Assembly: GCA_963663475.2 (NCBI GenBank)
Contig: CAXXJV010000001.1
Location: 1,664,001 to 1,728,000 of the forward strand
Direction of reading: 5' to 3'
Source of the DNA: Candidatus Cloacimonadales bacterium
GTDB lineage: Bacteria; Cloacimonadota; Cloacimonadia; Cloacimonadales; JAFGVF01
DNA: 64,000 nucleotides
Position 1 is the first letter of the stretch. Each line of letters begins with the position of its first letter. The position numbers and the translations under genes were made by a program. Positions 3,990 to 51,127 of the stretch are shown one piece after another. Under the pieces are notes generated by a model. It was not told where the DNA came from. It did not search any database and saw nothing but the letters and a program-made list of their open reading frames with translations.

Positions 3990-3991
3990 CT

Positions 3992-4954
3992 ATGAAAGAC
4001 TACTACTATCCTGACTCAAGATGGAAAAATTATAATATAACATCTAAGGAAGAATTCGTTAAACATTATGTTATAAAAGGAAAGTTTCATAAAGATGTTC
4101 CAAAAGATATTGTGGATGCTTACACTACAATTGAATATTTATTAGCACATTCATATTACTGGTGGCCAATGTATGACGAAGCTTTCCTTAAGGTTTTAAT
4201 GCTTTTAGAAACAGCTGTAAAAATCCGAGCTAAATCATTAGGGATTAGTCTAAAAATAACGAATAATAAGAGTAAAGAATTTAATAAAAAATTGTCTAAA
4301 CTAATAGATGAAGTCTGTATTATACTAGATTCAGATATTTTAAAATCTCAGTTACATAGAGCCAGAAAAATTAGAAATCCTAGCATTCATAAAGATTCAA
4401 ATAGTTATATGGGAGCAATGGGAGGACTAAAAGATAACCTCTATTTATTTGTAAATCTGATTAATTATCTATTTCTAACGAAAAAGCAAATAATAACAAG
4501 TGAAAGCCAACAAGACAAGATAAAAGAATTTTTAAATAAATTAGCCCAACCTCTGGCAATTCTTGAAATAGAGCAAAGCAGAATTCTTATTAAAGGATTT
4601 TCGATAGTTAATTATTTTAAATTCAATACTGAGTTATTGTTGATATCATGCATTCCAGTTATAAATGATTTATATGAAACCCTTAATAATGGTAGTCTTC
4701 CTGACCCAATACTTGTGGTATCTAAGAGTTTTCAGTTGGGGGATGGATCAATCAGCGGTAGAACTCTTGAAGGACAAAAATTTATGATAATCCAGACTTT
4801 AGATCAAAGAAACCTTGATAAATTAAAACTAGACCAAGATGACTATAAGAAATTAGATCATATATTAAAGAGTCACTATGATTATAATAACAGAGTTCAA
4901 CATGGTTGGGAGATACAACGAATTATATACGAGCAAGTTTGGGAGGGAAATTAA
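3992..4954 (+). CDS. Hypothetical protein with HEPN-like RxxxxH motif inside the R-M operon
   Basis: Helical N-terminal half with LLETAVK and RKIRNPSIH; 2-nt gaps to hsdS and hsdR. Confidence 0.6.
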   Translation: MKDYYYPDSRWKNYNITSKEEFVKHYVIKGKFHKDVPKDIVDAYTTIEYLLAHSYYWWPMYDEAFLKVLMLLETAVKIRAKSLGISLKITNNKSKEFNKKLSKLIDEVCIILDSDILKSQLHRARKIRNPSIHKDSNSYMGAMGGLKDNLYLFVNLINYLFLTKKQIITSESQQDKIKEFLNKLAQPLAILEIEQSRILIKGFSIVNYFKFNTELLLISCIPVINDLYETLNNGSLPDPILVVSKSFQLGDGSISGRTLEGQKFMIIQTLDQRNLDKLKLDQDDYKKLDHILKSHYDYNNRVQHGWEIQRIIYEQVWEGN

Positions 4955-4956
4955 TT

Positions 4957-23816: not shown

Positions 23817-25037
23817 ATGAAACATAGATTTGTAATAATTTTCTTTTTAGCTCTAGCTAGCACGCTTATAGGTCAGGACTTTTCTTTTGAAGATTTGATT
23901 GGAGATTGGGAAGGAGAAATTACCAGTGAAACAACCTATCAATGGAATTCTCCTACTAATATAAGTATTTATGCAGATGGTTTTTATACTGAATCTACTG
24001 GCATTTTAATGCCTTCAATATATCCGAATACTCAAGAAGTTACTTATGATGCTACTACAAATAGAGTGCATTTTAAATATCTTTATCTTGTTTATGCAGG
24101 ACAACACACTTATCAACATCACTACTTTGAACTCATTTCCTATAATGGAAATGATATCGAAATGCACTATAATTTTTGGGATGATACTCAAGCCCATCCT
24201 GAAGTAATGACTATTACTCTTTCCAGAGTGAATGTTGAAGAATATGGAAGTCTGTCAGGCTCAGTATATGATAATTATTCTTTAAGCCCACTTTCATATG
24301 TTAACATTGAAATTGGTCAATATACAACTACAACCGATATGTATGGTTCTTATAATATAGAACTACCAGTTGGCACATATCAGATTTCTCTCAATCATCC
24401 AGGTTATCAAGAAATTATACTAAATGATATCATGGTATATCCTAATGAAAATAATCCTATTAATATTGGACTAGATAATCTTATAATTCCTCCTTCCTCA
24501 TTAACTTATCAGCTCGATGAGAATAACATTGTTTTGAATTGGTCCCTTCCTCAAGCTTATAATCTAACAGGATATAACATATACATGAATGATCAAATTA
24601 TTGATACAGTAATGGAAAATACTTATTCGTCAAGTATAGCTAATGGTGAATTTTCCTTCTATGTAACAGCTTTATATGGTCAAGTTGAATCAGAAGCTTC
24701 CAACATAATCAATGTTACAGTTCAGCAGGTAACTAGTAATTCTAATCAAGTGTCCGAACTATCAGAGTTAACTCTAAATAATTATCCAAATCCTTTCAAT
24801 CCTTCAACATCAATTAGTTTTAATTTGCCTGAGAACTCACGAGTAAACTTAGCAATATATGACCTTAAGGGAAGAAAAGTAACTGAATTAATTAATCAAG
24901 AATTGCTTAAGGGACAGCATTCTTATAAATGGAATGGTAGGGATAGTAAAAATAGATCTTTAGCTAGCGGAATATATTTCTATACTTTACGTACTAATAA
25001 TGCTAGTTTAACAAAAAAGATGATAATGCAAAAATAA
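23817..25037 (+). CDS. Secreted protein with carboxypeptidase-regulatory-like, FN3 and FlgD/T9SS-like CTD
   Basis: Signal peptide; GSLSGSVYD...TTDMYGSY..LPVGTY; WSLP..GYNIY; NYPNPFNPSTSI...KKMIMQK. Confidence 0.85.
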   Translation: MKHRFVIIFFLALASTLIGQDFSFEDLIGDWEGEITSETTYQWNSPTNISIYADGFYTESTGILMPSIYPNTQEVTYDATTNRVHFKYLYLVYAGQHTYQHHYFELISYNGNDIEMHYNFWDDTQAHPEVMTITLSRVNVEEYGSLSGSVYDNYSLSPLSYVNIEIGQYTTTTDMYGSYNIELPVGTYQISLNHPGYQEIILNDIMVYPNENNPINIGLDNLIIPPSSLTYQLDENNIVLNWSLPQAYNLTGYNIYMNDQIIDTVMENTYSSSIANGEFSFYVTALYGQVESEASNIINVTVQQVTSNSNQVSELSELTLNNYPNPFNPSTSISFNLPENSRVNLAIYDLKGRKVTELINQELLKGQHSYKWNGRDSKNRSLASGIYFYTLRTNNASLTKKMIMQK

Positions 25038-25090: not shown

Positions 25091-27406
25091 CTAAAAATTC
25101 CCATCCTCTTTTTCTCTCATTTTTTTCAACTTTCTACTCAAAGAATAAGGGGTAATACCTAATAATTCAGCTGCTTTTTTTTGGAGATTATTGGATAATC
25201 TGAGAGCTTTATCTATAATATAAGCTTCGCATTCAGCTAAATTCAAGGATGGTAAATCTGGGTGATTATCACAAATATTGCATGTAGTCCGAGGTAGGCT
25301 GATGCTATCAACATCAATTACTGAACTTTTTGAAAGAAGCAGAGCTCTCTGCAAGATATTCTTCAATTCTCTAATATTACCTGGATAGTCATATGCAACA
25401 AGTAAGTCCAAAGCTTCCTTAGTAATAATTGGGGTTGATAGTCCTTGATTTATAGAAAGAGTATTCAAATAATAATCTATCAATAATGGTATGTCATCTT
25501 GTCTTTCACGTAGAGGGGGGAGCTGAATTTCCATAACATTTATTCTATTTAAAAGGTCAAAACGAAAATTATTAGCCAATGCCATGGCCGAAAGATCCTT
25601 GTTTGTAGCAGATATTAGACGGAAATCAACCTTTATATCTTTAGTAGAACCGATTCTATTAATAACTTTTTCTTCAATTACACGGAGAAACTTTGATTGC
25701 ATTTTCAGAGGCATATCACCAATTTCATCTAAGAAAAGACTACCTGTGTGGGCAGCTTCAAAATAACCAATTTGCTTATTTGCTGAACCAGTAAATGATC
25801 CTTTCTCACTACCAAAGAAAGCGCTTTCTATCAGAGAAGTTGCAAAAGCTGCACTGTTAACCGAGATAAAAGGATTTTCCTTTTTCTTACTAGCATAGTG
25901 AATCAGCCTAGCGATAGCTTCTTTACCAGTACCAGTCTCGCCAATAATTAAAACAGGGAGCTTATCACTATTAGCCACCATCATGGCCTGATAGATTACA
26001 TTTTGCATCTGAGCATTAGATCCAATAAGAGGGCTTTTCAGAAGTTTCTGCAATTCCTGAGATATTAGTGAAGTATTGGCATATGAGTTATAGCTGTTTA
26101 AAGTTTTCTGAGGCTTTTCATAGTCTTCTTTAATTGCCTTAATTTCAGCTTTATATTCTTCATTTTTTAGTTTCATCTTGATCTCATTTGCTAGTTTATA
26201 GTGCTTATAAGATTCCTTTATATTACCTTGAATCTCCAAAATTTCACTCAATAAACTATGATTTTTAGCAAGTTCATTCTGAAGGTTAAGTTCTTCAGCA
26301 AGTGCTTGAGCTTCCTTAAGTACAGGTAATGATTTAGAATATTTTTTCAAGCCCATATTACTAATTGCTATACCCTGCAAAATGACCAATTTATGTCTTT
26401 TATCATCTGTATCAGAATTGCAGTTAAGAGCAGAATTATATAGCTTTAAGGCGGAAGTAAACTGCTGTTGTTTTATCTTTAAATTAGCTAAATTTATCAT
26501 GATACTTGCTTTATCATTATAGTATTCTAGTGAATTGGCACAAGCTAAAGCCTCTTTCAAAAGCTTTTCTGCTTTATCATTATTATGGAGAACTCTATAG
26601 CAATTAGCTGAATTTATTGCCATAGTAATATAGGTATCAGGATCAGATTCTCTTAACTTACTAGATAGAAAAGGCTCAAAATAAGTCAGAGCTTCCTCAT
26701 GATTGCCGATTGATCCATAAGCTATACCTAAATTGTTACAAATAGAAAGATAATTATCACTAGATTGGTCTTCAATCCTCTTTTTAGCTTCTAGGAAGAA
26801 GTGGATAGCTTGTTTTAGCTTGCCCCACATAGCAGATATTCTACCCAAGCCAGTATAAGCTAAGGATAATACTTCTTCATTATTGATTTTTAAACCATAC
26901 TGCATGCCCAATTGATAATAATTAAAAGCTTGATCTAATTGTCCGTTACTCTCATAAATGAATCCTACATTTGAGTAACGACCTGTAAAATTATTAATAT
27001 TTCCAATCTCTTCAAGAATATCTATGCTTGCCTTTCCTTGAGTAATTGCTGAGTCTAAATCATTAAACATCCATAAGATGTAACTAAGATCAGCACAAAT
27101 TTCAGCTCTCTTAATATCTTTATTGAGATAAGAAGAATATTTTAGATAACCCTGGTAGATTTCCTGAAAGTTTTGCCCTTGTGCATAATATCTTATTGCA
27201 TGAAAAATTTGCAGATAGCTTTCTGTTAAAAGATTGCTAACTTGCTTTGGTAAAAGTGGGTCAAAATCTAAATACTGGTCAACTAGTTCTATTATTCTTT
27301 CATAATGATCGAGATAATTCATGTCTTTGTTTTCAACACAAACTTTCAGCTCATGCAGATTAGCTTCTAAACTTTGCAATCTACTTGTGTTTTTTTTTGT
27401 GGCCAT
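25091..27406 (-). CDS. TPR-repeat sigma54-dependent transcriptional activator (bEBP) with Fis HTH
   Basis: Multiple TPRs (YSNVGFIY, YTGLGRI, NNLGIAY, INLANL); GETGTGKE, GSFTGS, LFLDEI, YPGNIREL, AAELLGI; start ATG 27406 behind GGAGG. Confidence 0.92.
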   Translation of the reverse strand: MATKKNTSRLQSLEANLHELKVCVENKDMNYLDHYERIIELVDQYLDFDPLLPKQVSNLLTESYLQIFHAIRYYAQGQNFQEIYQGYLKYSSYLNKDIKRAEICADLSYILWMFNDLDSAITQGKASIDILEEIGNINNFTGRYSNVGFIYESNGQLDQAFNYYQLGMQYGLKINNEEVLSLAYTGLGRISAMWGKLKQAIHFFLEAKKRIEDQSSDNYLSICNNLGIAYGSIGNHEEALTYFEPFLSSKLRESDPDTYITMAINSANCYRVLHNNDKAEKLLKEALACANSLEYYNDKASIMINLANLKIKQQQFTSALKLYNSALNCNSDTDDKRHKLVILQGIAISNMGLKKYSKSLPVLKEAQALAEELNLQNELAKNHSLLSEILEIQGNIKESYKHYKLANEIKMKLKNEEYKAEIKAIKEDYEKPQKTLNSYNSYANTSLISQELQKLLKSPLIGSNAQMQNVIYQAMMVANSDKLPVLIIGETGTGKEAIARLIHYASKKKENPFISVNSAAFATSLIESAFFGSEKGSFTGSANKQIGYFEAAHTGSLFLDEIGDMPLKMQSKFLRVIEEKVINRIGSTKDIKVDFRLISATNKDLSAMALANNFRFDLLNRINVMEIQLPPLRERQDDIPLLIDYYLNTLSINQGLSTPIITKEALDLLVAYDYPGNIRELKNILQRALLLSKSSVIDVDSISLPRTTCNICDNHPDLPSLNLAECEAYIIDKALRLSNNLQKKAAELLGITPYSLSRKLKKMREKEDGNF

Positions 27407-27424
27407 AAGACCTCCTAGCGATAA

Positions 27425-27460
27425 TGCAATTAATTGCAGTAATAATTGCATAAGTGCAAT
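27425..27460. promoter_or_regulatory. Paired palindromes, candidate upstream activator sequences
   Basis: TGCAATTAATTGCA (27425-27438) and ATTGCATAAGTGCAAT (27445-27460), 110-145 bp upstream of the sigma54 site; next to minus-strand TTGACA (27465-27470). Confidence 0.6.
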
Positions 27461-27567
27461 AGAATGTCAAGTCAAATACTAATAATTCTTATGCTTATAA
27501 AAGTACTTTCTTAGTAAGATATTAATTATCAAGGCATTAGGAATGATACTTATAAGCTTATTATTTT

Positions 27568-27583
27568 TGGAATCATAAATGCA
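27568..27583 (+). promoter_or_regulatory. sigma54 -24/-12 promoter
   Basis: T-GG-AATCATAAAT-GC-A (GG-N10-GC), divergent from a bEBP gene. Confidence 0.7.
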
Positions 27584-27594
27584 GTTAATGTTAT

Positions 27595-27675
27595 TAACTC
27601 AAGATAATGCAGTAGATCTAAGCGAATAGCAGAATCTAACATCTTCAGCAAAGTTCTGCTGCCTCATTCGATTTA
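27595..27675. mobile_element. Internally deleted ERIC-like MITE (81 bp)
   Basis: TAACTCAAGATAATGCAGTAGA...AAAGTTCTGCTGCCTCATTCGATTTA keeps both ends of the ~167-bp element; abuts RBS AAGGAG. Confidence 0.7.
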
Positions 27676-27687
27676 AGGAGTGTATAT

Positions 27688-27888
27688 ATGAAAGAAAATG
27701 ATAATTGCACTGTAAGTGAATTACAGGAGAAATGGTTAGATGATACTAACTGTTTAATTGGATTTACTGTTACTTATAGTAATGGAAGAATAGAAAATCA
27801 GATGAGAAACTGCAACAAAGAAACTTATCTAAGAGAAAAAGCAGAACTTAATTATTTAAGAAAGAAATTTTTAACAGAAAAAAACTAA
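27688..27888 (+). CDS. Small (66 aa) protein, first gene of putative sigma54 operon
   Basis: RBS AAGGAG, 13 bp before the secreted-protein gene; positional counterpart of 34393-34596. Confidence 0.7.
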   Translation: MKENDNCTVSELQEKWLDDTNCLIGFTVTYSNGRIENQMRNCNKETYLREKAELNYLRKKFLTEKN

Positions 27889-27901
27889 ATGGAGAAAAAA
27901 G

Positions 27902-30544
27902 ATGAAAATTACCTTATTGATGATGTTATTTTTACTTACAGTTGTTTCCCTCTTGGGAGTTAATAGTGCTTTATATTTTGATGGACAAGATGATTATTTA
28001 CAAGTAAATTCAATTAGCACTAGCTTATTTCAACAGAATTCATATACAATTGAATGTTGGTTTAGAGGAGATGATATTACCACTTCTACTGGTAATCAAA
28101 TCTTATGGGGAATTAATGGCCCTGTTACCAATCCAAATACTAATATCTTGATGATAGCAGTTCACGGAAATGTTATCAAAATTTATGATGGGAACAATGT
28201 TAATTCTTATACTGGAACTTTGGTTATTCAACCTTCTGTATGGTATCATATTGCACTTGTGAAGTTTACTGATGATAGTTTCTCTTTATATCTCAATGGA
28301 CTTGAAGAGTTATCTGGTTCCCTAGACACTCCGATTGCTAGCAATAGTACTTTTTCCTTAGGCCAAGAATGGGATGCTAATCCTAGTGATTTCTTTCAAG
28401 GACAAATTGATGAATTTAGAGTATGGAGTAAGGTACTAGACCAAAATGAATTAAGACGAAAATCCTACCTTGAGCTAGATGAAGAAGAAACAGATTTAAT
28501 AGCATATTACAACTTTAATAATTCACTTACTGATCAATCTGGAAATTCACACAATGGAACATTTATCGGAGGATCTAATCAATTTCTTCCATCTTCAGCA
28601 ATATTAGGGGCTCAATCTTGTTTAGCTTTTCACGGTAATACTGGTGATACACGAGTAAATTGTGGAAATATAATTGATCCAAGTACTTTATCTTCTTTCA
28701 CAGTAGAATGTTGGGTAGAACCAGAAATTTCTAGTACAAATCATCACAGAAGATTGATAACCCAAGGTCCTTTAACATGGTTAGGTATAAATTCTAACAG
28801 AAATGTATATACAAATTTTCCTGATAATAGCTCGATTATGATAAGTGCAACTGAACTAACTTATGGCATTTGGAATCATCTTGCTTTAGTTTGGGATGGA
28901 GCAAATATTTCTTTATATATTAATGGTATTAAAGATGAGATAACTCAGTCGGCAAACTCACTTAGTTCTAATAATGCAGATGTTTACTTAGGTTATGAAG
29001 TAGATTGTCCTGAAAATCACTACTGGGGCTTAATGGATGAATTAAGGATTTGGAGCATAGGTAAGTCAGAAAGTCAAATTAGAGAAAACATGTGTAGAAA
29101 TATTTCTGGTAGTGAAGCTAACTTACTTGCTTATTATAACTTTAACAATACTTCTGGTTTAGTTGTGCAAGATTTATCTGGCAATTCACATGATGGTGCT
29201 ATGACAGGAAACTATTCTTGGTTGCCTTCTTCAGCTTTTAATATGTGGTTAGATTCTAGTGATAATATTTGGACAGAAGAATCTAATTGGTCAGATGGTA
29301 TTCCAGACGAGAATGCTAATGTTGGAATTTATAATTGGATTGATGAACTTGAATTACCAAATCCACAAAGCTATAATAATTTCTATATTGGAAATGGCGT
29401 TACTATTTCCCTAGTATCTTCGATAGATATTACAAGTTCATTAATAATTGAGGGAAATTTAAACTTAAATACCAATACTATTAATCTCCACGAAAATGCC
29501 GAATTAATTGATGAAAACGGAATCTTATCTGCTAATAGTGGAACTATAGAAACTACTATGGAACTTAATAATGTTAATCATGAAATAGCTGGGTTGGGTA
29601 TTACAATTTCAGAATCAAGCAATCTAGGTAATACTAGAGTAATTAGAGGACATAGAGCTTTAGGAAGTCAAGCAATTAAAAGATATTATCAAATTACATC
29701 TCAAAATCAACCAACTAATGCAAGTCTTGTTTTTAGTTATTTAGATTCAGAACTAAACGGACATGAAGAAAGTCAGCTTAAATTATTTAAGTCAGAAGAT
29801 GGAGTTAATTGGATAGAACAAAACTCTTCAATTGATACAGAAAATAATACTTTAACTTTAACAGGCATAACTAGTTTTTCTTATTGGACAGCTGCACCAA
29901 CAGGTTCAGATCAAACACTACCAGTAACTTTATCATCATTTACAGCAGTTTATGAAGAAGAACAAGCAATAATTAAATGGATTACTCAATCTGAAAACAA
30001 TAACCTTGGTTGGAATATCTATAGGGGTGAGACAAGTGATCAAACTCAAGCTCTTAGACTTAATAATATGTATATTCCTGCTTCTGGCTCTACTACTGAA
30101 CCAACAAATTATACTTATCAAGATGATTTCCCTGTAACCGATGGGAATGAATACTTCTACTGGCTAGAAGCAATAAGTTTAAATAATGAATCAACTTATC
30201 ACGGTCCTATTAATTTAATTATCTCCCAAGAAGAATTTGAAGAATCTTCTCCAGAAATACCTCATAAATATGGACTTCTACCTAATTATCCAAATCCTTT
30301 TAATCCAAGTACTACCATAGAATTTGCTATGAAGAAAGAAGGAAACTATAAGCTGACTGTTTATGATATCAAAGGTAGAAAAGTTAAGGATATTTTCTCT
30401 GATTACATCCAAGCAGATAAATTATATAGACTTGTTTGGGATGGCAAAGATTACCAAGGTAAAAACGCTGCATCAGGAATTTACTTTTATCGCTTGTCTG
30501 GGAATGGTCTAGTTATAAATCGGAAAATGATATTAGTGAAGTAG
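27902..30544 (+). CDS. Secreted protein with two LamG/ConA-like domains and FlgD/T9SS-like CTD
   Basis: Signal peptide; two TIECW...WYHIALV...GQIDEFRVW repeats; LPVTLSSFTA domain; NYPNPFNP...KMILVK. Confidence 0.9.
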   Translation: MKITLLMMLFLLTVVSLLGVNSALYFDGQDDYLQVNSISTSLFQQNSYTIECWFRGDDITTSTGNQILWGINGPVTNPNTNILMIAVHGNVIKIYDGNNVNSYTGTLVIQPSVWYHIALVKFTDDSFSLYLNGLEELSGSLDTPIASNSTFSLGQEWDANPSDFFQGQIDEFRVWSKVLDQNELRRKSYLELDEEETDLIAYYNFNNSLTDQSGNSHNGTFIGGSNQFLPSSAILGAQSCLAFHGNTGDTRVNCGNIIDPSTLSSFTVECWVEPEISSTNHHRRLITQGPLTWLGINSNRNVYTNFPDNSSIMISATELTYGIWNHLALVWDGANISLYINGIKDEITQSANSLSSNNADVYLGYEVDCPENHYWGLMDELRIWSIGKSESQIRENMCRNISGSEANLLAYYNFNNTSGLVVQDLSGNSHDGAMTGNYSWLPSSAFNMWLDSSDNIWTEESNWSDGIPDENANVGIYNWIDELELPNPQSYNNFYIGNGVTISLVSSIDITSSLIIEGNLNLNTNTINLHENAELIDENGILSANSGTIETTMELNNVNHEIAGLGITISESSNLGNTRVIRGHRALGSQAIKRYYQITSQNQPTNASLVFSYLDSELNGHEESQLKLFKSEDGVNWIEQNSSIDTENNTLTLTGITSFSYWTAAPTGSDQTLPVTLSSFTAVYEEEQAIIKWITQSENNNLGWNIYRGETSDQTQALRLNNMYIPASGSTTEPTNYTYQDDFPVTDGNEYFYWLEAISLNNESTYHGPINLIISQEEFEESSPEIPHKYGLLPNYPNPFNPSTTIEFAMKKEGNYKLTVYDIKGRKVKDIFSDYIQADKLYRLVWDGKDYQGKNAASGIYFYRLSGNGLVINRKMILVK

Positions 30545-30577
30545 GTTACACTCTTTCTCATCCTACTTGTAGAAAGC

Positions 30578-30601
30578 AATCCCCCTCATCTGAGGGGGAT
30601 T
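30578..30601 (+). terminator. Hairpin, probable terminator
   Basis: AATCCCCCTCA-TC-TGAGGGGGATT. Confidence 0.6.
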
Positions 30602-30664
30602 AGATTTTGGGCAATAAAAGTAACTTAATTTTTAGCTAATTCCAGTCTGGTGGCAGAAAACTAT

Positions 30665-30829
30665 TAAAACCGAATAATTTAGTAGTTCTATGTGAAAAGC
30701 ACTGTATTATTCTGCAAAAGTAACTTTCATAATTCTTCCGAATATATTATATGCGTTAAAATTCAGTAAGCTATTTTGCTAGAATAATCTGTAATCTTCA
30801 CTAAAAAACCTACTGAAACATTCTGGATA
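30665..30829. mobile_element. ERIC-like palindromic MITE, copy 3 (165 bp)
   Basis: Shares TGCAAAAGTAAC...AATATATTATATGC...GCTATTTTGCTAGAATAATCTG core and TA ends with copies 1 and 2. Confidence 0.8.
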
Positions 30830-30899
30830 AATAACATATTCTTTGGTTGACAGCAAATATTAGTGAGATTTTTTTTGATAAAAAACTTATGGAGATGTA

Positions 30900-31892
30900 A
30901 TGTCTGTTCCTTTAATAAATGTTTGGCGTGGTACTATAGTAGAGAGTATCCATAGGGGAGACCTAGTAGTTGTTGATGCTGATGATAAGATTATCTATTC
31001 TCTGGGAAATCCTCAAAAGATAACATATTTCCGATCTTCTGCAAAAGCAATTCAAGCACTTAATGTTGTAAAATCAGGTGCTTATGATAAATATAAGTTA
31101 ACAGAAAGGGAATTATCTCTTATCTGTTCTTCTCATTATGCAGAAGAATTTCATCTTCAAACTGTTCAGTCCATTTTAGATAAAATTGGACTACACAAAA
31201 ATAATATTCTAGGTGGTATTGTAGCTTCTCTGAATCCCGAAATAGCTCTAAGACAAGCTGCTTCTGGCCATATAATTGATGAGAGATATAGTGATTGTTC
31301 AGGAAAACAAGCTGGTATGTTGGCTGTATGTCAAACAAAAGGCTACAGTCTTAATAACTATCTGGATCCAAATCATCCATGTCAACAAGAGATATTAGAA
31401 GATATCTCAACTTTCTGTCAAATAGCTAAAGAAGAAATTATCATAGGTATAGATGGTTGTTCTGCTCCTGTACATGCTCTTCCCCTAATTAACATGGCCA
31501 TAGGCTTTAGAAATCTAAGTAATCCTGAAAAATTAGCTTGTGAAGACAAAGCAGCTGCAAACTTAGTTTATAAGAGTATGGTTACTTATCCAGAAATGAT
31601 ATCAGGAACTGCTGGTTTTTGTAGTCAGCTAATAAAATACTCAAATGGAAAGTTGATAGGTAAGGTTGGAGCTGAGGGGGTTTATACTATTGGTATTAAA
31701 GAAAGAAATATTGGCATTGCCTTGAAAATAGAATCAGGTTCTATGACAGTTATCCCTCCTGTTATAATGAGAACTTTAAGAGAATTAGATATTCTTAGTA
31801 AACAAGAATTAGATGATTTACAAAAGTATATGGAAATGGATTCACTCAATGATAATGGCAGACTTGTAGGTAAGATTGTCACAGCTTATTGA
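30900..31892 (+). CDS. L-asparaginase II (Rhizobium-type, class 3)
   Basis: ESIHRG, RSSAK, SSH, DCSGK, DGCSAP, KVGAEG motifs. Confidence 0.9.
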   Translation: MSVPLINVWRGTIVESIHRGDLVVVDADDKIIYSLGNPQKITYFRSSAKAIQALNVVKSGAYDKYKLTERELSLICSSHYAEEFHLQTVQSILDKIGLHKNNILGGIVASLNPEIALRQAASGHIIDERYSDCSGKQAGMLAVCQTKGYSLNNYLDPNHPCQQEILEDISTFCQIAKEEIIIGIDGCSAPVHALPLINMAIGFRNLSNPEKLACEDKAAANLVYKSMVTYPEMISGTAGFCSQLIKYSNGKLIGKVGAEGVYTIGIKERNIGIALKIESGSMTVIPPVIMRTLRELDILSKQELDDLQKYMEMDSLNDNGRLVGKIVTAY

Positions 31893-31907
31893 AGAAAAGT
31901 ACAAGTT

Positions 31908-34160
31908 TTATCGACAATAATCATATAATTTATACTTAGCAATTTTTCTAGCTATAGAATTAGCAGTTAATCCCAGTAACTTAGCTGCTTGTAATTGGAC
32001 TCCATTAGTTTGGATAAGAGCATCTTTAACAGTATCTTTGATAACTTGATCTAGGTTAAGAGTATCTTTTTGATATTGCTTGCAATTATTTTGCAGATTC
32101 AAATAATTATCTAAGACAAGTTGCAAATCTTCATTATTAGCTAGGGAAATTGCTATTCTTTGAGTTATATTTTTTAACTCGCGAATATTGCCTGGGAAAG
32201 AATAAGTCATTAAAATCTCTAAGTGCTTAGGAGTAAGAGTCTGAACTGGTATATTAAGCTTCTGACAATAATCAGCTAAGAAATAATTTGCTAAATCTTT
32301 AATATCGCTTTTCCTATCTCTTAGGGCAGGGAGTTTTATTTCATAGTTACATAACCTGTAAAACAAATCAATCCGAAACTTATTCTCCTTGGTAAGTTGC
32401 AAGAGATCTTTATTAGTTGCAGAGATTATTCTAAAGTCTGATTTGACAGCTTGAGTAGATCCCAAAGGGTAAAATTCTTTATCTTCTAGAACTTTTAAAA
32501 GTTTTGTTTGTATATCTAAAGAAATCTCAGATATTTCATCTAAGAAAAGGCTACCTTTATCGACAATGTTGAGAATACCCAGTTTGTCTTTATCAGCCCC
32601 TGTAAAAGCTCCTTTCTTATAACCAAAAAGCTCACTCTCAATAAGTGTAGGACTAATAGCTGACAGATTGAACTCACAGAAATTTTGCTTACTTCTATTA
32701 CTCTTATAGTGAATATATTTAGCAAGTAATTCTTTTCCTGTTCCTGTTTCACCTGTAATTAATACATTACTAAAAGTAGCATTAGCTACATTTTGTGACT
32801 CTTTCTTTATTCTCTTAATCTCTGTCGATCTACCAATTATTGATTTCTCAATTTTTTCTGAAATTGCTTCGGATGATAAGACTTTTTTTATTGCCTCTTC
32901 TTGATTAATTTCTTCATAAGAATGGAGTAAATTGTGATAATAATCCATTTCTAAGATGTTTTTATGAAGCTCTAGCTCTTTAGCTACCTTACGATACTTA
33001 CTTAAGTAAGCTAGAATTTTTTCTCCCTCATTAAGTTTAGAATAGTATTCTATCATGAAGAAGAGGTATTCTTTGTAAAAGTCTCTTTTCTCAGAAATTA
33101 CCTCTTGCATTAAATCTTCAATCTTCTTAATATCGATTTTTTCTACTTGATTAGATGATAGATAATAAGAGTAGAGGAAAAGAAGTGGTATTCTCGCTCG
33201 TGAATCTGCTTTGAGCTGGGTGAAATAAGCTTGGGCATAATCAGTTTTTTCATTCATTACTGCTATTAAAAAGCTTTCAGAAATAATCCGCTCAAGTACC
33301 TTCTCATCCTGACTGATAGATTTAATTTCATCTAAAATTGCTATAGCTTGTGTAAAGAGTTTTGATTGACTTAGCATTCTAGCTTTCATGAATTTAAGGT
33401 GAGTTTTATCAAGAGGAGAGTCTGCACATAAAGCTATTTCCAAATGCTTAAGGGCTAAATCCATCATAGATTTTGAAGCATATGCAATACTTAGAGTGTG
33501 ATTAGCTCGGTAGTAGAGTACTTTTTCTTTGCGAATATGTTCATCACTTATAATCTTTTTAAAATAATAAATTGCCTCATAGAAATTACCTGTTCTAAAC
33601 TTATAATGTCCTAAGGCTAAAAAATAATATGCTTTTGCATATTCTGAATTATCTATTGCTATATAATCAGTAAAACGTTTATAGATTTGTTCTGCTTTAT
33701 CCAGTTTGTTATTGCTAGAATAATGAATTAATAACTGACTATAGGCTGATGCTGTGATTTTAATCGGCATATAGGTATCAATTAAAGACAAAATTCTTTC
33801 AATTAAGGAGTCGGTTTGCTCACTAAAATAATAAACTGATTGTACCATATAAGCTAGAGTAATTTCCACAATCTTACCACTTTTGGTAAGAGCTATACCT
33901 ACATTAACAATTGTATCTAAAAGCCTGTCTGAAGGGGGAATTGTAGTAATTAAAGCTTCTGTCAAACATGCTTCCATGAAGTAGTACTGAGAGTCTTTGT
34001 TTGGCTGATAATTATGCTCTAATATAGTAAAGAAACTATCATATATTTGATAGCAAATCTCAACAATTTTTTCTCGAGATTGTCCATTCTTGCTAGCAAT
34101 TAATAAATTCTCATATAACTTATACAACTTATAACTTAACTCAGTTTTTCTAATTTTCAT
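31908..34160 (-). CDS. sigma54-dependent activator (bEBP) with N-terminal TPR-like helical region and Fis HTH
   Basis: LALGHYKFRTGNFYEAIYYF TPR; GETGTGKE, ESELFG, GAFTGA, LFLDEI, FPGNIREL, AAKLLGL. Confidence 0.92.
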   Translation of the reverse strand: MKIRKTELSYKLYKLYENLLIASKNGQSREKIVEICYQIYDSFFTILEHNYQPNKDSQYYFMEACLTEALITTIPPSDRLLDTIVNVGIALTKSGKIVEITLAYMVQSVYYFSEQTDSLIERILSLIDTYMPIKITASAYSQLLIHYSSNNKLDKAEQIYKRFTDYIAIDNSEYAKAYYFLALGHYKFRTGNFYEAIYYFKKIISDEHIRKEKVLYYRANHTLSIAYASKSMMDLALKHLEIALCADSPLDKTHLKFMKARMLSQSKLFTQAIAILDEIKSISQDEKVLERIISESFLIAVMNEKTDYAQAYFTQLKADSRARIPLLFLYSYYLSSNQVEKIDIKKIEDLMQEVISEKRDFYKEYLFFMIEYYSKLNEGEKILAYLSKYRKVAKELELHKNILEMDYYHNLLHSYEEINQEEAIKKVLSSEAISEKIEKSIIGRSTEIKRIKKESQNVANATFSNVLITGETGTGKELLAKYIHYKSNRSKQNFCEFNLSAISPTLIESELFGYKKGAFTGADKDKLGILNIVDKGSLFLDEISEISLDIQTKLLKVLEDKEFYPLGSTQAVKSDFRIISATNKDLLQLTKENKFRIDLFYRLCNYEIKLPALRDRKSDIKDLANYFLADYCQKLNIPVQTLTPKHLEILMTYSFPGNIRELKNITQRIAISLANNEDLQLVLDNYLNLQNNCKQYQKDTLNLDQVIKDTVKDALIQTNGVQLQAAKLLGLTANSIARKIAKYKLYDYCR

Positions 34161-34241
34161 GTAAACTCCCCAAAGAATTATATAGCAAAAATAGATTTAC
34201 TTATTGGAGATAATAAGTCAAGCTATTTATTTTTTTCTTTT

Positions 34242-34278
34242 TACCGAAAACGGGAAATAGCCTATGGCGATTTCGGGA
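34242..34278. promoter_or_regulatory. Paired GC-rich dyads, candidate UAS
   Basis: TACCGAAAACGGGA and TGGCGATTTCGGGA, 23 bp apart, 90-125 bp upstream of the sigma54 site in an AT-rich spacer. Confidence 0.55.
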
Positions 34279-34364
34279 TATAGGTATGCTAGCTTAATAT
34301 GATTATTCCAATTATAATAAATTAAACTACTGTAAAATAGTTACTTATATCATTAGCTTATTTT

Positions 34365-34380
34365 GGGAATATTATCTGCT
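34365..34380 (+). promoter_or_regulatory. sigma54 -24/-12 promoter
   Basis: G-GG-AATATTATCT-GC-T (GG-N10-GC), preceded by AGCTTA and a T-tract as at 27568. Confidence 0.65.
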
Positions 34381-34392
34381 TATTAAATATTT

Positions 34393-34596
34393 ATGAAAAA
34401 GAATAAAAATAATTTGCTACTTATTAAAGAGAGTTTGCTACAAGCTCAAAAAGTTGGGAATCCAACCTTCAATGGAAAGAAATGGGCTATAACTATTCTT
34501 AACATCAAGGGTGAGATTAATAACTTTACTTTTAACCAAGATGACTATTGGCAAGTCAAGCAACTTATTCAAAATTATAATAAACAAAGGAGATAG
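34393..34596 (+). CDS. Small (67 aa) protein, first gene of putative sigma54 operon
   Basis: ATG 13 nt after the -12 GC with no RBS; stop 1 nt before ATG 34598. Confidence 0.6.
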   Translation: MKKNKNNLLLIKESLLQAQKVGNPTFNGKKWAITILNIKGEINNFTFNQDDYWQVKQLIQNYNKQRR

Positions 34597-34597
34597 T

Positions 34598-37069
34598 ATG
34601 TTTAAAAAGAGTCTTTTAATTTTTTGCTTATTAACAAGTATAAGCTTTCTAATCGCAAGCACATATTACGTGTCAAAAACTGGTGATAATAGCAATGGCT
34701 TAACTTGGTCAACAGCTTATAATGAGGTGCAAACAGCCATAAATTCTGCTTCTAGCGGTGACCAAGTCTGGGTAGCAAAAGGAAAATATTTTCCTACAGA
34801 CTACAATCCAAAGGGTGTTGGCACAGCTGTTTTGAACAGAACCAAGACCTTTGTGATTAAGAATGGTATTGATGTTTATGGAGGCTTTGCTGGCAATGAA
34901 ACACAAATTGATCAAAGAGTCAACTACTGGATTGGACAGGCTAATGAGACTATTCTTTCAGGAGATTTAAATAATGATGATGATTATTCTCAATGGGAAA
35001 GCTATAATCAAAACCTAATTAAGAATACTGAAAACTCCTATAATGTGATTTATTATTATAATGTATATACCCAGACTATTGTAGATGGTTTCACTATTTC
35101 TGGAGGTAATGCTGATACGAAAGTTTCTGGTAAACCTTATCATGATGGAGGTGGAGCACATTTAACTTCTTCCCAAGCTTATTTGAAAAACTGCAGAATT
35201 ATCTATAATCAAGCAGTCAATGCTGCAGGTGCAATTACTTTTTCTGGTGGAGAGCTCTGGGATTGTGTAATCTCACGTAATAGAACTGTAGCCCAAAATA
35301 CTGATGCTGGAGATGCTGGAGGTGTTAAGTTACATAATGGTGGTAAATTAATAAATTCAATAATAACTGATAATTATTCAGTTGAAAGCTCTGCTAGAGG
35401 TGGTGGTGTATGTTGTTCTTGGAGATCTCCAGGTCATGCAATAATCAACTGTGTTATCGCAAATAATAAAACAGCTGGAACTGGTGGTGGAATTGGTAAC
35501 TATGGAACTTATTCCTCTTATACAAAAGCTTATAATACAATCATCTGGGGCAATACAAGGAACGGCATTTCTAGTCAAATTGGTGGCACAGGAACTTCTT
35601 TATATTATTGTGGTGTCCAAGGTGGTTATTCTGGAACAGGAAACTATAATTTAAGTTCTGATAATGATGCTGTAACTGGTCCAAATTTTTATAACTCAGA
35701 TGCTGGTGATTGGCGTTTAAGAATTACTTCACCCTTACTTAATATTGGCTCAAATGCTTATACAAGTAGTCCAGTAAGCATATCAACTGATATTCTCGGA
35801 AATCCTCGTATAATTGAATCAATTGTAGATATGGGGCCATATGAGCATTTTTATCAAGTAGCTCTTCAACCTGATGCAAATGGTATCATATATGTAAAGA
35901 GCTCGGCTGCAGGTTCTGCTGATGGATCTTCTTGGGAGAATGCTACATCTTCACTACAAGGAGCTTTGGATTCTGATGCTGAACAAGTTTGGATTTCAGA
36001 AGGGACTTATTATCCTACGCAAAATATCCCTGGTATGGAATCTGATCTACGAGCTCAAGCTTTTATACTTGAGTCTGATAAACAGATATATGGAGGTTTT
36101 CCTGCTGAAGCTAATTCAATAGATAATTCTACCTTAGATTCACGTAATAGTGATGAATATCTAGTCTATTTAACAGGAGACATAGGACAACCTGGTATCA
36201 ATGATGATAATTCTTATCATGTGCTGTACTCGCAAAATATATCATCATTTACTATCTTAGATGGATTTTTCATTAGTGGAGGAAACGCAGATGGTCTTAG
36301 TCCTCATGATCAAGGTGGAGCAATTTATTTAGTAGATTCTTCTCCAACAATAAATGATGTTAATTTAGAAAACAATCAATCAGAATCTGCTAGTGAACCT
36401 ATATTATTAGAAGGTGCTTCTAATCCAATAGTTACTGATAGTCCAGGTATGGATGATACTTTGCCTGTAGAACTAACTTCTTTCACTGCAGTACTTACCA
36501 ATGCAAATCACTCTAAAATAATGTGGCATACAGCTTCAGAATCTAATTTAATTGGTTATAATATATACAGAAGTGAGCTAGATAATATTAGTACAGCAAT
36601 TAGAATTAATCCTCAATATATAGAGGCTAATAATAGTCCAACCGGATCTGAATATTCTTATACAGATCAGGAAATTGAAATGAATATAAGTTATTATTAT
36701 TGGTTAGAATCTACAGAAGTTAGCGGTTATATCGAATACTTCGGGCCAATATCTCTTAAGATAGGGGAGGGAGAAGATATTATTGATCCTGTAATTACTC
36801 TTACAAATCTTAAAGAAAACTATCCTAACCCATTCAATCCTCAAACTAAATTTGAATTTTATGTTAAAGAAGGTGAAAGTGCTAGCTTTAAAATATTCAA
36901 TCTAAAGGGACAAGTAATCCAGTCGCTTGATAATATCACAAGTGGTAAGGGTGAATATACTTGGGATGGTAGAGATAAATCTGGAAAGCATGTTGCATCT
37001 GGAATTTATTTCTATAGCTTGAAAAGTCAGTCATATAGCTCTGTTAAGAAAATGGTTTTAAGCAAATAG
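34598..37069 (+). CDS. Secreted pectin-lyase-like beta-helix protein (choice-of-anchor-Q-like) with FlgD/T9SS-like CTD
   Basis: Start MFKKSLL behind AAGGAG; two YV......G.SW..A...VW...G.Y.P modules, GGG repeats, DILGNPRI...VDMGPYE, LPVELTSFTA, NYPNPFNP...KMVLSK. Confidence 0.88.
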   Translation: MFKKSLLIFCLLTSISFLIASTYYVSKTGDNSNGLTWSTAYNEVQTAINSASSGDQVWVAKGKYFPTDYNPKGVGTAVLNRTKTFVIKNGIDVYGGFAGNETQIDQRVNYWIGQANETILSGDLNNDDDYSQWESYNQNLIKNTENSYNVIYYYNVYTQTIVDGFTISGGNADTKVSGKPYHDGGGAHLTSSQAYLKNCRIIYNQAVNAAGAITFSGGELWDCVISRNRTVAQNTDAGDAGGVKLHNGGKLINSIITDNYSVESSARGGGVCCSWRSPGHAIINCVIANNKTAGTGGGIGNYGTYSSYTKAYNTIIWGNTRNGISSQIGGTGTSLYYCGVQGGYSGTGNYNLSSDNDAVTGPNFYNSDAGDWRLRITSPLLNIGSNAYTSSPVSISTDILGNPRIIESIVDMGPYEHFYQVALQPDANGIIYVKSSAAGSADGSSWENATSSLQGALDSDAEQVWISEGTYYPTQNIPGMESDLRAQAFILESDKQIYGGFPAEANSIDNSTLDSRNSDEYLVYLTGDIGQPGINDDNSYHVLYSQNISSFTILDGFFISGGNADGLSPHDQGGAIYLVDSSPTINDVNLENNQSESASEPILLEGASNPIVTDSPGMDDTLPVELTSFTAVLTNANHSKIMWHTASESNLIGYNIYRSELDNISTAIRINPQYIEANNSPTGSEYSYTDQEIEMNISYYYWLESTEVSGYIEYFGPISLKIGEGEDIIDPVITLTNLKENYPNPFNPQTKFEFYVKEGESASFKIFNLKGQVIQSLDNITSGKGEYTWDGRDKSGKHVASGIYFYSLKSQSYSSVKKMVLSK

Positions 37070-37165
37070 TATGGCTCTTGTTCAAGTCTGCTGGTAAATG
37101 AGAGACTTTCATTATAGCATATTGCTTAAATAATAGAAAGTTACAAGTAAGATTATATGAAGAGT

Positions 37166-37245
37166 GACGGGAGTTGCTCATGGAGTAGCGACTTCCGACT
37201 CTCTTCACCCGAAGTCCCTTGCCTAGGGCTGAGGAACTCTGGTCT
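37166..37245. repeat. Dispersed repeat, reverse complement of 57853-57935
   Basis: GTAGCGACTTCCGACT...CCGAAGTCCC..GCCTAGGGCTGAGGAAC matches the inverse of the element after the TraB gene. Confidence 0.85.
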
Positions 37246-37282
37246 CCAACAAAAAGCAGGCTCAAGTTCAAGTTTGGTGAAC

Positions 37283-38059
37283 ATTCCCCTTTCAGCTCGT
37301 CAGAGCGGTATGAGAGGGGTGCCATAAGGTGGGGAGAGTAACATTCCCCTGTCGATTCTTTACACGAATTAACGCGAATTAGAACGAATTTCACGAATAA
37401 GAAAAGCTCTTTAACACAGAGTTCATAGAGGTAAAGAGGAGTTTTACAGAGTTTTAATAAGGAAGAATAAGCCACCTAAAACACCGATAATAATAAGTGA
37501 TTTACCACAAAGGCACGAAGACACAAAAGGAAAAGAAGATTCTAACTGGGAATGCGGTACTAACTGGGAATGCGGGCATCCCTGCCCGCGGTTATGCAGA
37601 TTACAAGTGGTTACGGGAATGGGTCGCGGGATTGTCTCTTAATTCCCCTTTCAGCTCGTAAGAGCGGTATGAGAGGGGTGCCGTAAGGCGGGGAGAGTAA
37701 ACATTCCCCTGTCGATTCTTTACACGAATTAACGCGAATTAGAACGAATTTCACGAATAAGAAAAGCTCTTTAACACAGAGTTCATAGAGGTAAAGAGGA
37801 GTTTCACAGAGTTTTAATAAGGAAGAATAAGCCACCGAAAACACCGATAATAATAAGTGATTTACCACAAAGGCACGAAGACACAAAAAGGAAAAGAAGA
37901 TTCTAACTGGGAATGCGGTACTAACTGGGAATGCGGGCATCCCTGCCCGCGGTTATGCAGATTACAAGTGGTTACGGGAATGGGTCGCGGGATTGTCTCT
38001 TAATTCCCCTTTCAGCTCGTAAGAGCGGTATGAGAGGGGTGCCGTAAGGCGGGGAGAGT
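37283..38059. repeat. ~360-bp tandem duplication (about 2.2 copies) built of REP-like modules
   Basis: Units start at 37283, 37642 and 38003 and are nearly identical. Confidence 0.95.
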
Positions 38060-38448
38060 CTTAAATTGGCCTCTTGTCATTGCATTCAGGACTTCCCATT
38101 AAAAAACCTTCAATGTATTCAATACAACCATCCAATTGTTTATAAATTTGATAATATGAAAATCTAATAATTTTCATTCCTAAACTTTCTAAATATCTTT
38201 CTCGTTTTTCATCATATTCTTCTTTATAATCATGGTCTCTACCATCTATTTCAACTATTAATTTAAATTTAGCACAGTAAAAATCGACAATGTAATTTCC
38301 TATTGGTTTTTGCCGATGGAAGTGTGAGATTTTTCTTTAAATCTTTTGCATATTTTGTTAGTTTTTTGCTGTATTTTATTGTCATGTTGTTACTCTCCCC
38401 GCCTTACGGCACCCCTCTCACACCGCTCTTACGAGCTGAAAGGGGAAT
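38003..38448. mobile_element. DUF559 nuclease cassette bounded by 57-bp inverted repeats
   Basis: 38003-38059 and 38392-38448 are reverse complements with one mismatch; extra partial copy at 38451-38480. Confidence 0.7.
38061..38385 (-). pseudogene. DUF559 (Vsr-like PD-(D/E)XK) endonuclease with internal deletion/frameshift
   Basis: MTIKYSKKLTKYAKDLKKNLTLP then frame change to FHRQKPIGNYIVDFYCAKFKLIVEIDGRDH...YDEKRERYLESLGMKIIRF; 325 nt; absent from ORF track. Confidence 0.85.
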
Positions 38449-38520
38449 ATTACTCTCCCCGCCTAACGGCACCCCTCTCATTATTTGGGATTATAATAAG
38501 TCTATGGTATATATGATGTT

Positions 38521-38626
38521 ATTTAACCCTTTCAGGGTTAGGCTTTGTTTTTCATCACCAGTACCCAGGGTTGCATTCCCTTCAGGAATTTACCCTGGGC
38601 TAAACTATTTATCCCCTTTTGGGGAT
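38521..38626. repeat. Multi-hairpin REP-like element
   Basis: AACCCTTTCAGGGTT, CCCAGGGT...ACCCTGGG and ATCCCCTTTTGGGGAT stems. Confidence 0.65.
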
Positions 38627-38728
38627 TCAAGACTTATCCCCTCAGGATACATAAAAAAGGTGTCCACTATATTGGTACTTGACAAAAAATACTCAAGTAA
38701 ATCAGAATGTTTCATTGAAATTGTGGTT

Positions 38729-38756
38729 TAACCTCAATAATGCATTATTTGGATTA
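38729..38756. mobile_element. Minimal 28-bp remnant of the ERIC-like MITE
   Basis: TAACCTCAATAATGCATTATTTGGATTA equals the two element ends fused at TGCA. Confidence 0.5.
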
Positions 38757-38877
38757 AAATGTACTACTGAGGAAGTCTAGTCTACTTTGGAGAGAACCGA
38801 TTTTTCTGGTGAATCTCTATTATTTCCAAAAGTTCAATTACATAAATCGGGGTTATAGAAACATGCATTTAACTTAT

Positions 38878-50892: not shown

Positions 50893-50898
50893 TATTTT

Positions 50899-51070
50899 AC
50901 TTCTGCAATATTAGTGATCTTTCATTGAAGAAGAACTAACATTAAATAGGGAATCGAGCCATTGGTGGCACTCAAGCCGTCTTTGTTACGGATCAGTAAA
51001 GCTGATAAGGTAGATGCCCACCTTGAACGGAGTTCTAGGTTTTCAATAATGGACACGGTATTGCGGAAAT
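50899..51070 (+). ncRNA. ssrS: 6S RNA
   Basis: ~170 nt; closing stem TTCTGCAATA / TATTGCGGAA, internal GAACT/AGTTC and GGTGG/CCACC pairings; canonical position between zapA and rny. Confidence 0.8.
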
Positions 51071-51127
51071 TTTTTTAACAAAAGTTAGATCCTTTACTAA
51101 AGGATAGAATATAGATAAAGAGAGGAT

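Follow-up and report, generated by a model that had tools for sequence, protein, structure and literature searches.

Activators of sigma-54 transcription are classified by their sensor domains. In the PspF/PspA system of E. coli, the activator gene is divergent from the sigma-54 operon, enhancers lie in the shared spacer over the activator's own promoter, and the product of the first gene of the activated operon, PspA, feeds back on PspF. Tetratricopeptide repeat (TPR) sensors are found in the RRNPP regulators (Rap, Rgg, NprR, PlcR and PrgX), which have an adjacent peptide gene, and in MalT-type STAND regulators, which combine TPR sensor repeats with a STAND NTPase and work with sigma-70. Excerpts of the account of the PEP-CTERM/EpsH system describe a sorting-signal class whose transcription uses sigma-54 promoters, a conserved activator site lying upstream, and in which one receiver-type activator, PrsR, acts with a kinase on many genes and the TPR protein is a separate lipoprotein (PrsK-PrsR-PrsT) (PMC1569441). 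The part of the Flavobacterium study concerned with remFG-sprCDBF describes an adhesin operon of type IX secretion (T9SS) with a -24/-12 sigma-54 promoter and small genes in first position, and counts three PF00158 proteins genome-wide (PMC9723704). Here, we report two like modules at 25091-37069 of a window from a Candidatus Cloacimonadales genome (G000:C1:1664001-1728000, the whole stretch of 64,000 nt that was analysed), both of which link a TPR-type sigma-54 activator to a small open reading frame (ORF) and to a gene for a protein with a T9SS C-terminal sorting domain (CTD).

Our proposal, at a rough probability of 0.5, is that the two modules are self-contained sigma-54 switches belonging to a type conserved in Cloacimonadota, including an account in which the small protein feeds back on the activator. 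That the module is real, with the small protein as an integral part of it, is very probable.

Architecture of the two modules

Each module consists of a TPR-type activator, module-specific dyads as candidate upstream activating sequences (UAS), a GG-N10-GC promoter, an ORF of 66 or 67 aa and a CTD cargo (Table 1). The two are separated by an asparaginase II gene (30900-31892) in a genome of 3.3 Mb, 2 contigs and ~32% G+C. An initial annotation of this DNA had described the same architecture twice in 12 kb, as dedicated units of activator, UAS and sigma-54 promoter heading a small protein and a secreted CTD protein; this description was borne out, with the elements found where it had placed them or close by and two starts corrected. 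The genome encodes RpoN (PF04552, 171.7 bits, open frame of 487 aa) and T9SS machinery, with the translocon SprA at 487 bits summed (cut-off 200) and the sortase PorU at 571.6 bits (cut-off 420); the PorV model reached 139.6 bits in the genome, under its cut-off of 250.

The ORF of activator 1 spans 25091-27451 on the minus strand, and its start is most likely at 27406 (MATKKNT...), not at 27451, because the former is common to the orthologues; with this start, both dyads of module 1 would therefore fall inside the spacer. Its TPR region covers approximately residues 1-440, and Pfam profiles identified Sigma54_activat (207 bits), TPR_12 (87 bits, cut-off 30.1), AAA_lid_14 and a helix-turn-helix (HTH) of the HTH_8 type (36.6 bits). 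Activator 2 matched Sigma54_activat at 205 bits and HTH_8 at 27.6 bits (cut-offs 20.2 bits for PF00158 and 22 bits for HTH_8). The initial annotation had called both regulatory regions TPR or helical, which the TPR_12 match confirms for activator 1; activator 2, at 18.6 bits, stays under that cut-off, but from residue ~140 onward its N-terminal region can be aligned with the corresponding part of activator 1. At the GAFTGA-type loop, activator 1 has GSFTGS and activator 2 has GAFTGA.

The dyads of module 1 are TGCAATTAATTGCA (27425-27438) and TTGCATAAGTGCAA (27446-27459), and those of module 2 are CCGAAAACGGGAAA (34244-34257) and CGATTTCGGGATA (34268-34280), with site centres ~94-139 bp upstream of the GG in both modules. 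Orthologous spacers were aligned from the five genomes named in Table 1 for module 1 (G000 being the window's own genome) and from G000, G001, G002, G003, G004, G006 and G008 for module 2. The module 1 spacers keep the blocks ATGCAATTAATTGCA, ATTGCATAAAYGCAAT, a GTCAAG box and TTTTGGAATC-N4-TTGCAGT, separated by scrambled DNA, and the module 2 spacers keep GTCAAG, CGAAAACGGGAAA-N10-CGATTTCGGGATA and TGGAAT-N6-TGC. Dyads and GG-N10-GC elements are thus phylogenetic footprints, kept in five and seven genomes, respectively, and we regard them as more than chance because the flanks of these orthologous spacers have diverged. Both GG-N10-GC sites are predicted to be sigma-54-type promoters of a TGGCAC-N5-TTGC-like form. 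Paired dyads upstream of such a site had been noted from the letters alone, as had a difference between the modules in dyads and HTHs, and both observations hold: the sites are TGCA-type in module 1 and CGAAAACG-type in module 2, and the recognition helices, read from the sequence, are unlike.

The conserved GTCAAG box of module 1 is probably the -35 box of activator 1's own promoter, and that of module 2 is possibly the equivalent for activator 2. A TTGACA box adjoining TTGCA/TGCAA-type dyads also occurs in divergent loci of other genera. In module 1, the dyads would probably cover the spacer, -10 box and start site of the activator's promoter, an arrangement that would imply autorepression.

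Both small ORFs are genuine genes: their frames stay open in relatives, differences are in excess at third codon positions, AlphaFold2 models are confident and, for type 1, profile matches are wide. The type 1 frame (P0001) is open at 72-79% identity in 3 of 6 genus genomes and at 50% in another genus of the family, and the type 2 frame (P0002) at 45-93% identity in 5 of the 6 genus genomes. Differences between orthologues number 62 at third positions against 43 and 32 at the others in module 1, and 468 against 267 and 185 in module 2. AlphaFold2, run on small alignments, gave a predicted local distance difference test (pLDDT) score of 89 for type 1 and 87 for type 2. A type 1 profile of 11 sequences matched 96 cluster representatives at E<=1e-3, including 16 at E<=1e-10, among 1.84 billion proteins. 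Almost all of these stand alone, are 50-124 aa long and have in common VS-x-I ... GFT[VI]-x-Y-x-[DN]G-x-[IF]-x-N, to which the motif GFTVTY-x-NG-x-I-x-N of P0001 corresponds; G25, F26 and N37 are invariant. A word-indexed homologue search with P0001 returned 3 proteins only, so that a profile search was needed to reach the wider family.

It could be that the small ORF is mainly an upstream reading frame that loads ribosomes for the cargo, with a peptide that has no regulatory role. The layout would suit such a job. In module 2, 13 nt separate the GC from the start of the small ORF (13-15 nt from the -12 TGC in 7/7 orthologues); no Shine-Dalgarno sequence precedes this ATG, and the transcript would be leaderless or almost leaderless (leader absent or ~2 nt). 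The cargo starts abut or nearly abut the small ORF stop: the ATG of cargo 1 starts 14 nt after the end of the stop, with GGAG 8 nt before it, and that of cargo 2 begins 1 nt after. Shine-Dalgarno-like GGAG sequences lie inside the small ORF or directly behind it. Such a role is nevertheless very improbable, since the protein is conserved across the phylum with its invariant residues and a confident fold, substitutions are concentrated at third codon positions, and many sigma-54-type promoters of this genome drive CTD genes directly without such a frame.

The module 1 leader of the window differs from that of its relatives, in which the promoter is followed by ~10 nt and then by AGGAG and ATG. 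An insertion of ~80 nt lies here between promoter and ribosome-binding site; it belongs to an interspersed repeat with 193 genome copies within 8 mismatches of a 34-nt core, which resembles a miniature inverted-repeat transposable element and has long (~200 nt) and short hairpin forms. An RNA-like element in this leader, considered as a riboswitch, was rejected as a copy of this 193-member repeat. The sole Rfam match on the window was a 6S RNA (50897-51073, plus strand, RF00013, 56.5 bits against a gathering score of 46.4).

Both small proteins have charged, non-hydrophobic N-termini and no signal peptide, are predicted to be compact folded domains, and carry C-terminal helices and tails rich in Lys and Arg. 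These basic tails, together with the best VIA structural matches, would fit a nucleic-acid binder acting on the mRNA or at the promoter, where it might help enhancers to loop, as a bending or architectural factor. The VIA matches include the AP2 domain 6sy0_A for type 1 (AP2-like DNA binding; Z 6.1, root-mean-square deviation 3.1, 57 residues) and SRP9/14 and eL38 for type 2 (RNA binding; Z 6.1-6.9). All lie below the caution line of Z 8, a range common among unrelated small folds, and the two types have different neighbours. Foldseek, run on the type 1 model alone, gave nothing at E<=0.001 (best E 0.039), and neither small protein has a Pfam or NCBIfam match, so that a nucleic-acid role appears very improbable. 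First matches in the ESM Atlas scored 0.78 and 0.77 and are leads only. The small proteins look cytoplasmic and are of undescribed kind, without a known family or a confident known fold.

Table 1. Features of the two modules, with positions counted from the first letter of the window
Feature	Position	Strand	Description
Activator 1	25091..27406	-	771 aa from conserved start; TPR region, AAA+, Fis-type HTH
Module 1 UAS	27425..27459	.	Two TGCA-type dyads (candidate UAS); conserved in G000, G002, G003, G004, G009
GTCAAG box, module 1	27466..27471	-	cTTGACa on minus strand; conserved in 5 orthologous spacers
Module 1 sigma-54-type promoter (predicted)	27568..27584	+	TGGAATCATAAATGCAG; GG 27569-70, GC 27581-82
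Interspersed repeat, short copy	27594..27673 (bounds approximate)	+	In module 1 5' leader; absent from orthologous spacers
Small protein type 1, P0001	27688..27888	+	66 aa; predicted four strands and C-terminal helix
Cargo 1	27902..30544	+	880 aa; signal peptide, two Laminin_G_3, pre-CTD domain LPVTLSSFTA, T9SS type A CTD
Activator 2	31908..34160	-	750 aa; helical TPR-like N-terminal region, AAA+, HTH_8
GTCAAG box, module 2	34217..34222	-	Conserved in 7/7 orthologous spacers
Module 2 UAS	34244..34280	.	CCGAAAACGGGAAA and CGATTTCGGGATA (candidate UAS), starts 24 bp apart; conserved in 7 genomes
Module 2 sigma-54-type promoter (predicted)	34365..34381	+	GGGAATATTATCTGCTT; GG 34366-67, GC 34378-79
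Small protein type 2, P0002	34393..34596	+	67 aa; predicted helix, three strands, helix
Cargo 2	34598..37069	+	823 aa; signal peptide, pre-CTD domain LPVELTSFTA, T9SS type A CTD

The cassette across Cloacimonadota

A 37-sequence profile of type 1 was searched against 232 Cloacimonadota genomes and matched in 67 of them, representing 31 of 66 genera, with up to 6 matches per genome. From ~125 matches, we took 60 loci lying outside the window's genus and more than ~5.6 kb from a contig start, 55 of which have at least 3 kb of upstream flank and are evaluable for an activator. A long activator lies within 1.5 kb upstream in 38 of these 55 loci, and all 38 of these activators carry TPR_12 over its cut-off together with Sigma54_activat; no receiver, GAF or PAS domain appears in their Pfam listings. 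Conserved synteny, the test that the initial annotation had set beforehand, was found across genus, family, order and class.

The promoter element is likewise retained. In 40 of 60 loci, a GG-N9-TGC site precedes the conserved part of the small protein by 20-110 nt; of the random windows drawn from these loci, 1101 of 12000 (9%) contain one. Positions left free by this pattern spell TGGCAC at the 40 sites: 37 have T at -1, 33 have C at +2 and 28 have C at +4.

Divergence of activator and operon, seen in both modules, is not the rule: 29 of the 38 adjacent activators are co-directional with the small ORF and 9 divergent. Orientation tracks the activator tree, with the module 1 clade and a few others divergent and the rest co-directional. 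The divergent layout would thus be one clade's version of a cassette that itself appears, from gene order, to be a conserved unit across the phylum. The tree is a quick version with a midpoint root, built without the rows that lack a Walker A pattern match (a 1420-aa activator described below and the receiver-type activators L004 and L006). In it, the type 2 activators form a long-branch clade beside receiver-type outgroups; this placement may be long-branch attraction, and the tree does not settle whether the type 2 small protein descends from type 1.

Type 2 is nearly confined to the window's family, being present in 7 of 11 other family genomes and in 10 of 232 phylum genomes. A third member of the small-protein family in the window's genome (C1:1084078-1084287) stands behind a TPR activator and before a 449-aa CTD protein, all co-directional. 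BLAST and phmmer comparisons among the two or three small proteins of this genome gave no match.

In total, the genome contains 10 true sigma-54 activator frames, 6 of which are TPR-type. One TPR-type activator (L135, G000:C1:117235-121497) has 1420 aa, with STAND-like AAA_16, TPR, sigma-54 AAA+ and HTH_8 regions, and is divergent from a giant CTD protein of 5716 aa. A 56-aa ORF before this giant cargo was considered as a member of the small-protein family and rejected, having no profile match and no GG-N10-GC site. Two receiver-type sigma-54 activators, L004 (G000:C1:478578-482265) and L006 (496823-501500), also adjoin CTD genes, and TGGAACTAGTCTTGCA is found 30 nt upstream of a 558-aa ORF that comes after L006. 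G+C-rich repeated blocks of the repetitive extragenic palindromic (REP) type, for example gcctactgcgagcaaggatgctcgcgttccc units, follow activators L008 and L010.

Possible action on the activator or service to the cargo

In the circuit that we propose, the activator would bind its own dyads via its HTH and, as the dyads overlap its probable sigma-70-type promoter (TTGACA box), would repress itself. From ~95-140 bp upstream it would assemble, use ATP and remodel the sigma-54 holoenzyme, opening the operon promoter, with the TPR region as an input domain that holds the ATPase off or on. Firing of the operon would produce the small protein, which would bind its cognate activator and close a feedback loop in the style of PspA on PspF. 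The loop could have either sign; were it positive, every surface protein would be under a latching ON/OFF choice. Direct action of the small protein on the activator is a tentative reading to which we give slightly less than even odds. The wider form, in which the small proteins are phylum-wide co-regulators, each docking on its own activator's TPR sensor, and make the cassette self-latching or self-limiting, is doubtful.

Whole activator 1 (47-sequence alignment) was co-folded with P0001 (37-sequence alignment) alongside three controls. Scores were 0.44, 0.44 and 0.40, against 0.00 in all three controls; runs agreed in at least 100% of contacts, partner pLDDT was at least 76, and the result was graded 'weak support'. 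Among solved complexes, 116 of 157 attained this mark, as did 2 of 215 mismatched pairs. Because genomic linkage was strong beforehand, we take the co-fold as a modest push towards binding, which would have no say on the domain involved. Divergence of the small protein and the activator is correlated (rho 0.34, with 0 of 2000 permutations as high). The initial annotation had proposed the small protein as a possible TPR-domain ligand, which stays tentative: the co-fold leans weakly towards binding, and co-divergence does not separate the TPR region from the ATPase region.

Several observations weigh against a feedback role. At co-fold scores of up to 0.60, the mark was reached by 18 of 157 solved complexes and by both passing mismatches, and a pass this low is wrong in most cases unless the pairing was already likely; no interface came with the co-fold, which does not point to the TPR domain in particular. 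Co-divergence is as strong for the AAA+/HTH part, at rho 0.32, as for the TPR region, at 0.34, and co-inheritance of neighbouring genes would explain it. A small ORF does not accompany every activator. TPR activators L009 and L010 drive or flank CTD genes without a small ORF and nest, in the quick tree, inside clades that bear one, so the small protein would be dispensable for the switch itself. Conversely, 17 of 55 small ORFs have no adjacent long activator, one of these having a long activator 1.6 kb away and one a shorter activator. Alignment of type 1 with type 2 by hhalign gave a probability of 4% with a narrow alignment and of 43% (E 2.5e-4) with a broad one, over the same hairpin-plus-helix stretch, which is only suggestive of homology. 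Small proteins always ahead of large exported proteins also fit a cargo-related job.

Both cargos have NYPNPFNP and hydrophobic N-termini (read from the sequence, with signal peptides judged from hydrophobicity alone) and match TIGR04183 at 33.5 bits (cargo 1) and 36.8 bits (cargo 2) against a cut-off of 23, in agreement with the earlier reading of a 66-67-aa ORF followed by a CTD protein with LPVxLxSFTA and NYPNPFNP. The start of cargo 2 was corrected from GTG 34511 to ATG 34598, and its passenger region has no Pfam match beyond a weak choice-of-anchor Q. Among the 2566 genome ORFs that are 100 aa or longer, approximately 118 carry PNPF close to the C-terminus. A scan for TGG-N9-TGC, made with no shuffle control, found 65 sites that fall outside long ORFs and have an ORF 16-450 nt downstream. 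CTD genes follow 20 of these, against 118 CTD genes among all 2566 ORFs, mostly at 40-100 nt from the start codon and mostly without a small ORF between; sigma-54 therefore appears to be a general route to CTD-protein expression in this genome. With 6 TPR activators against 20 sigma-54-type sites before CTD genes, the generalization of one activator per surface protein is only partly true.

The small protein might instead serve the cargo, as a cytoplasmic escort, holdase, targeting factor or translation-coupling partner, with the activator as a mere operon regulator; we consider this unlikely. In its favour, the cargo gene follows within 1-14 nt in both modules, and 17 of 55 small ORFs are without an adjacent activator. 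Among the 60 survey loci, the next same-strand gene encodes a PNPF-CTD protein in 29 and runs beyond the examined stretch in 6. It is complete but without PNPF in 14, of which 2 have a CTD-like end without the exact motif, bringing the loci with a CTD cargo to at least 31, and the rest are chiefly exported proteins whose C-terminal domain is of another kind, several having signal peptides, or small frames. Against such a role, the 600 nt downstream hold no large gene in 11 of 60 loci.

The main support for service to the cargo is a domain of ~120 aa led by LPVxLSSFxA, without a Pfam match (window 29900-30300 and 36400-36800). The LPV motif lies 119-124 aa before PNPF in 14 of 118 CTD ORFs, including all 3 cargos behind small ORFs, and in its strict form it occurs in 18 of 29 small-ORF cargos of the survey against 6 of 20 other CTD frames of the same loci. 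This association may mean that the cassette descended as a whole, or that the small protein is functionally tied to the C-terminal module. None of the remaining 11 LPV-type genes in the window's genome comes with a small ORF of this family, however, and only 1 of them has a sigma-54-like site. All-vs-all BLAST of 49 downstream proteins minus their last 100 aa linked 37, with likeness limited to ~100-130 aa just before the CTD, so that the cargos are alike only in their last ~230 aa and their passengers are unrelated across loci. Exit through Sec by an N-terminal signal would also leave a partner of the C-terminal domain a short window, and the co-fold with the activator scored above all controls.

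Genome G004, a sister species, bears on both readings (L033, G004:C1:1640500-1660499, 3774-6481). Its module 1 keeps the activator and small ORF, cargo 1 is missing, unrelated convergent genes come next, and module 2 is intact 7 kb away. Because activator and small ORF are kept there without a cargo, this locus argues that the pair can stand alone, G004 having presumably either lost its cargo or never had one.

Two further features flank the modules. A CTD protein of 406 aa with CarboxypepD_reg and Por_Secre_tail is encoded at 23817-25037 on the plus strand, convergent with activator 1, and a G+C-rich stretch without convincing ORFs follows cargo 2 (window 37044-38800).

Significance and comparison with described systems

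If the wider form of the proposal is true, Cloacimonadota cells could choose independently which large T9SS surface proteins to display by means of their cassette set, and the small protein would be the first protein ligand for a TPR-type enhancer-binding protein, with surface-repertoire control arising from sigma-54 logic. The cassette would explain the control of many large surface proteins (~118 CTD genes in the window's genome) in an uncultured anaerobic-digester phylum of importance to biotechnology. The field of bacterial enhancer-binding proteins would gain a defined small-protein family, with its 96 cluster representatives and confident predicted fold. The parts are compact (activator, ~230-bp spacer and 200-bp gene), which makes the feedback idea directly testable in an rpoN+ host, and orthogonal pairs of TGCA-type and CGAAAACG-type sites could serve as tight synthetic switches.

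In agreement with the initial annotation, which did not recognize the modules as a described system, no description of them was found in the literature searched. Full-text searches, which did not cover the 2003 survey by Studholme and Dixon (reportedly the classic survey of activator domain architectures), found no TPR-type enhancer-binding protein with a small-protein partner; they also found no account of sigma-54 control in Cloacimonadota.

In circuit layout, PspF/PspA would be the closest system, and the likeness of modules 1 and 2 to it is one of layout only, with binding in the modules suggested by analogy. PspF has no N-terminal sensor domain, whereas the module activators carry ~430 aa of TPR. 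PspA is a coiled coil of ~220 aa and is unlike the 66-aa beta-sheet-plus-helix proteins described here, which have no Pfam match. Psp output concerns membrane stress, and that of the modules is a secreted T9SS cargo. Judged as a member of the Psp system, the locus differs on both counts: the small protein falls outside the PspA/IM30 family, and a sensor domain is part of the activator.

The modules share with RRNPP regulators a TPR sensor in a transcription regulator and a small gene beside it, and RNPP_C exceeds its cut-off of 26.5 bits in 3 of 38 surveyed activators (30.6, 29.0 and 29.2 bits). The output differs, being an N-terminal XRE-type HTH in RRNPP regulators and a sigma-54 AAA+ ATPase with a Fis-type HTH in the modules. 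The peptide analogy drawn in the initial annotation does not carry over to the small proteins, which are folded domains of 66 aa without a signal peptide; in place of an exported pro-peptide, they have charged N-termini and predicted compact domains. Repeats like TPR_MalT appear in the Pfam listings of the activators, mostly below cut-off. Unlike MalT, the module activators have no STAND NTPase and would act via sigma-54.

Excerpts on the PEP-CTERM system show the same kind of control, with sigma-54 acting on proteins that carry a C-terminal sorting signal and a TPR protein in the regulatory set (PMC1569441). Compared with the system as described there, the modules fuse the TPR to the activator and occur with several activators per genome; they use the T9SS CTD, and a small protein precedes the cargo (PMC1569441). 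For remFG-sprCDBF, the corresponding part of the Flavobacterium study names no dedicated TPR activator beside the operon (PMC9723704), whereas each module has one. Set against these systems, the cassette is a phylum-wide form of the activator/sigma-54 circuit of which no earlier description was found, and it comes with an undescribed small-protein family.

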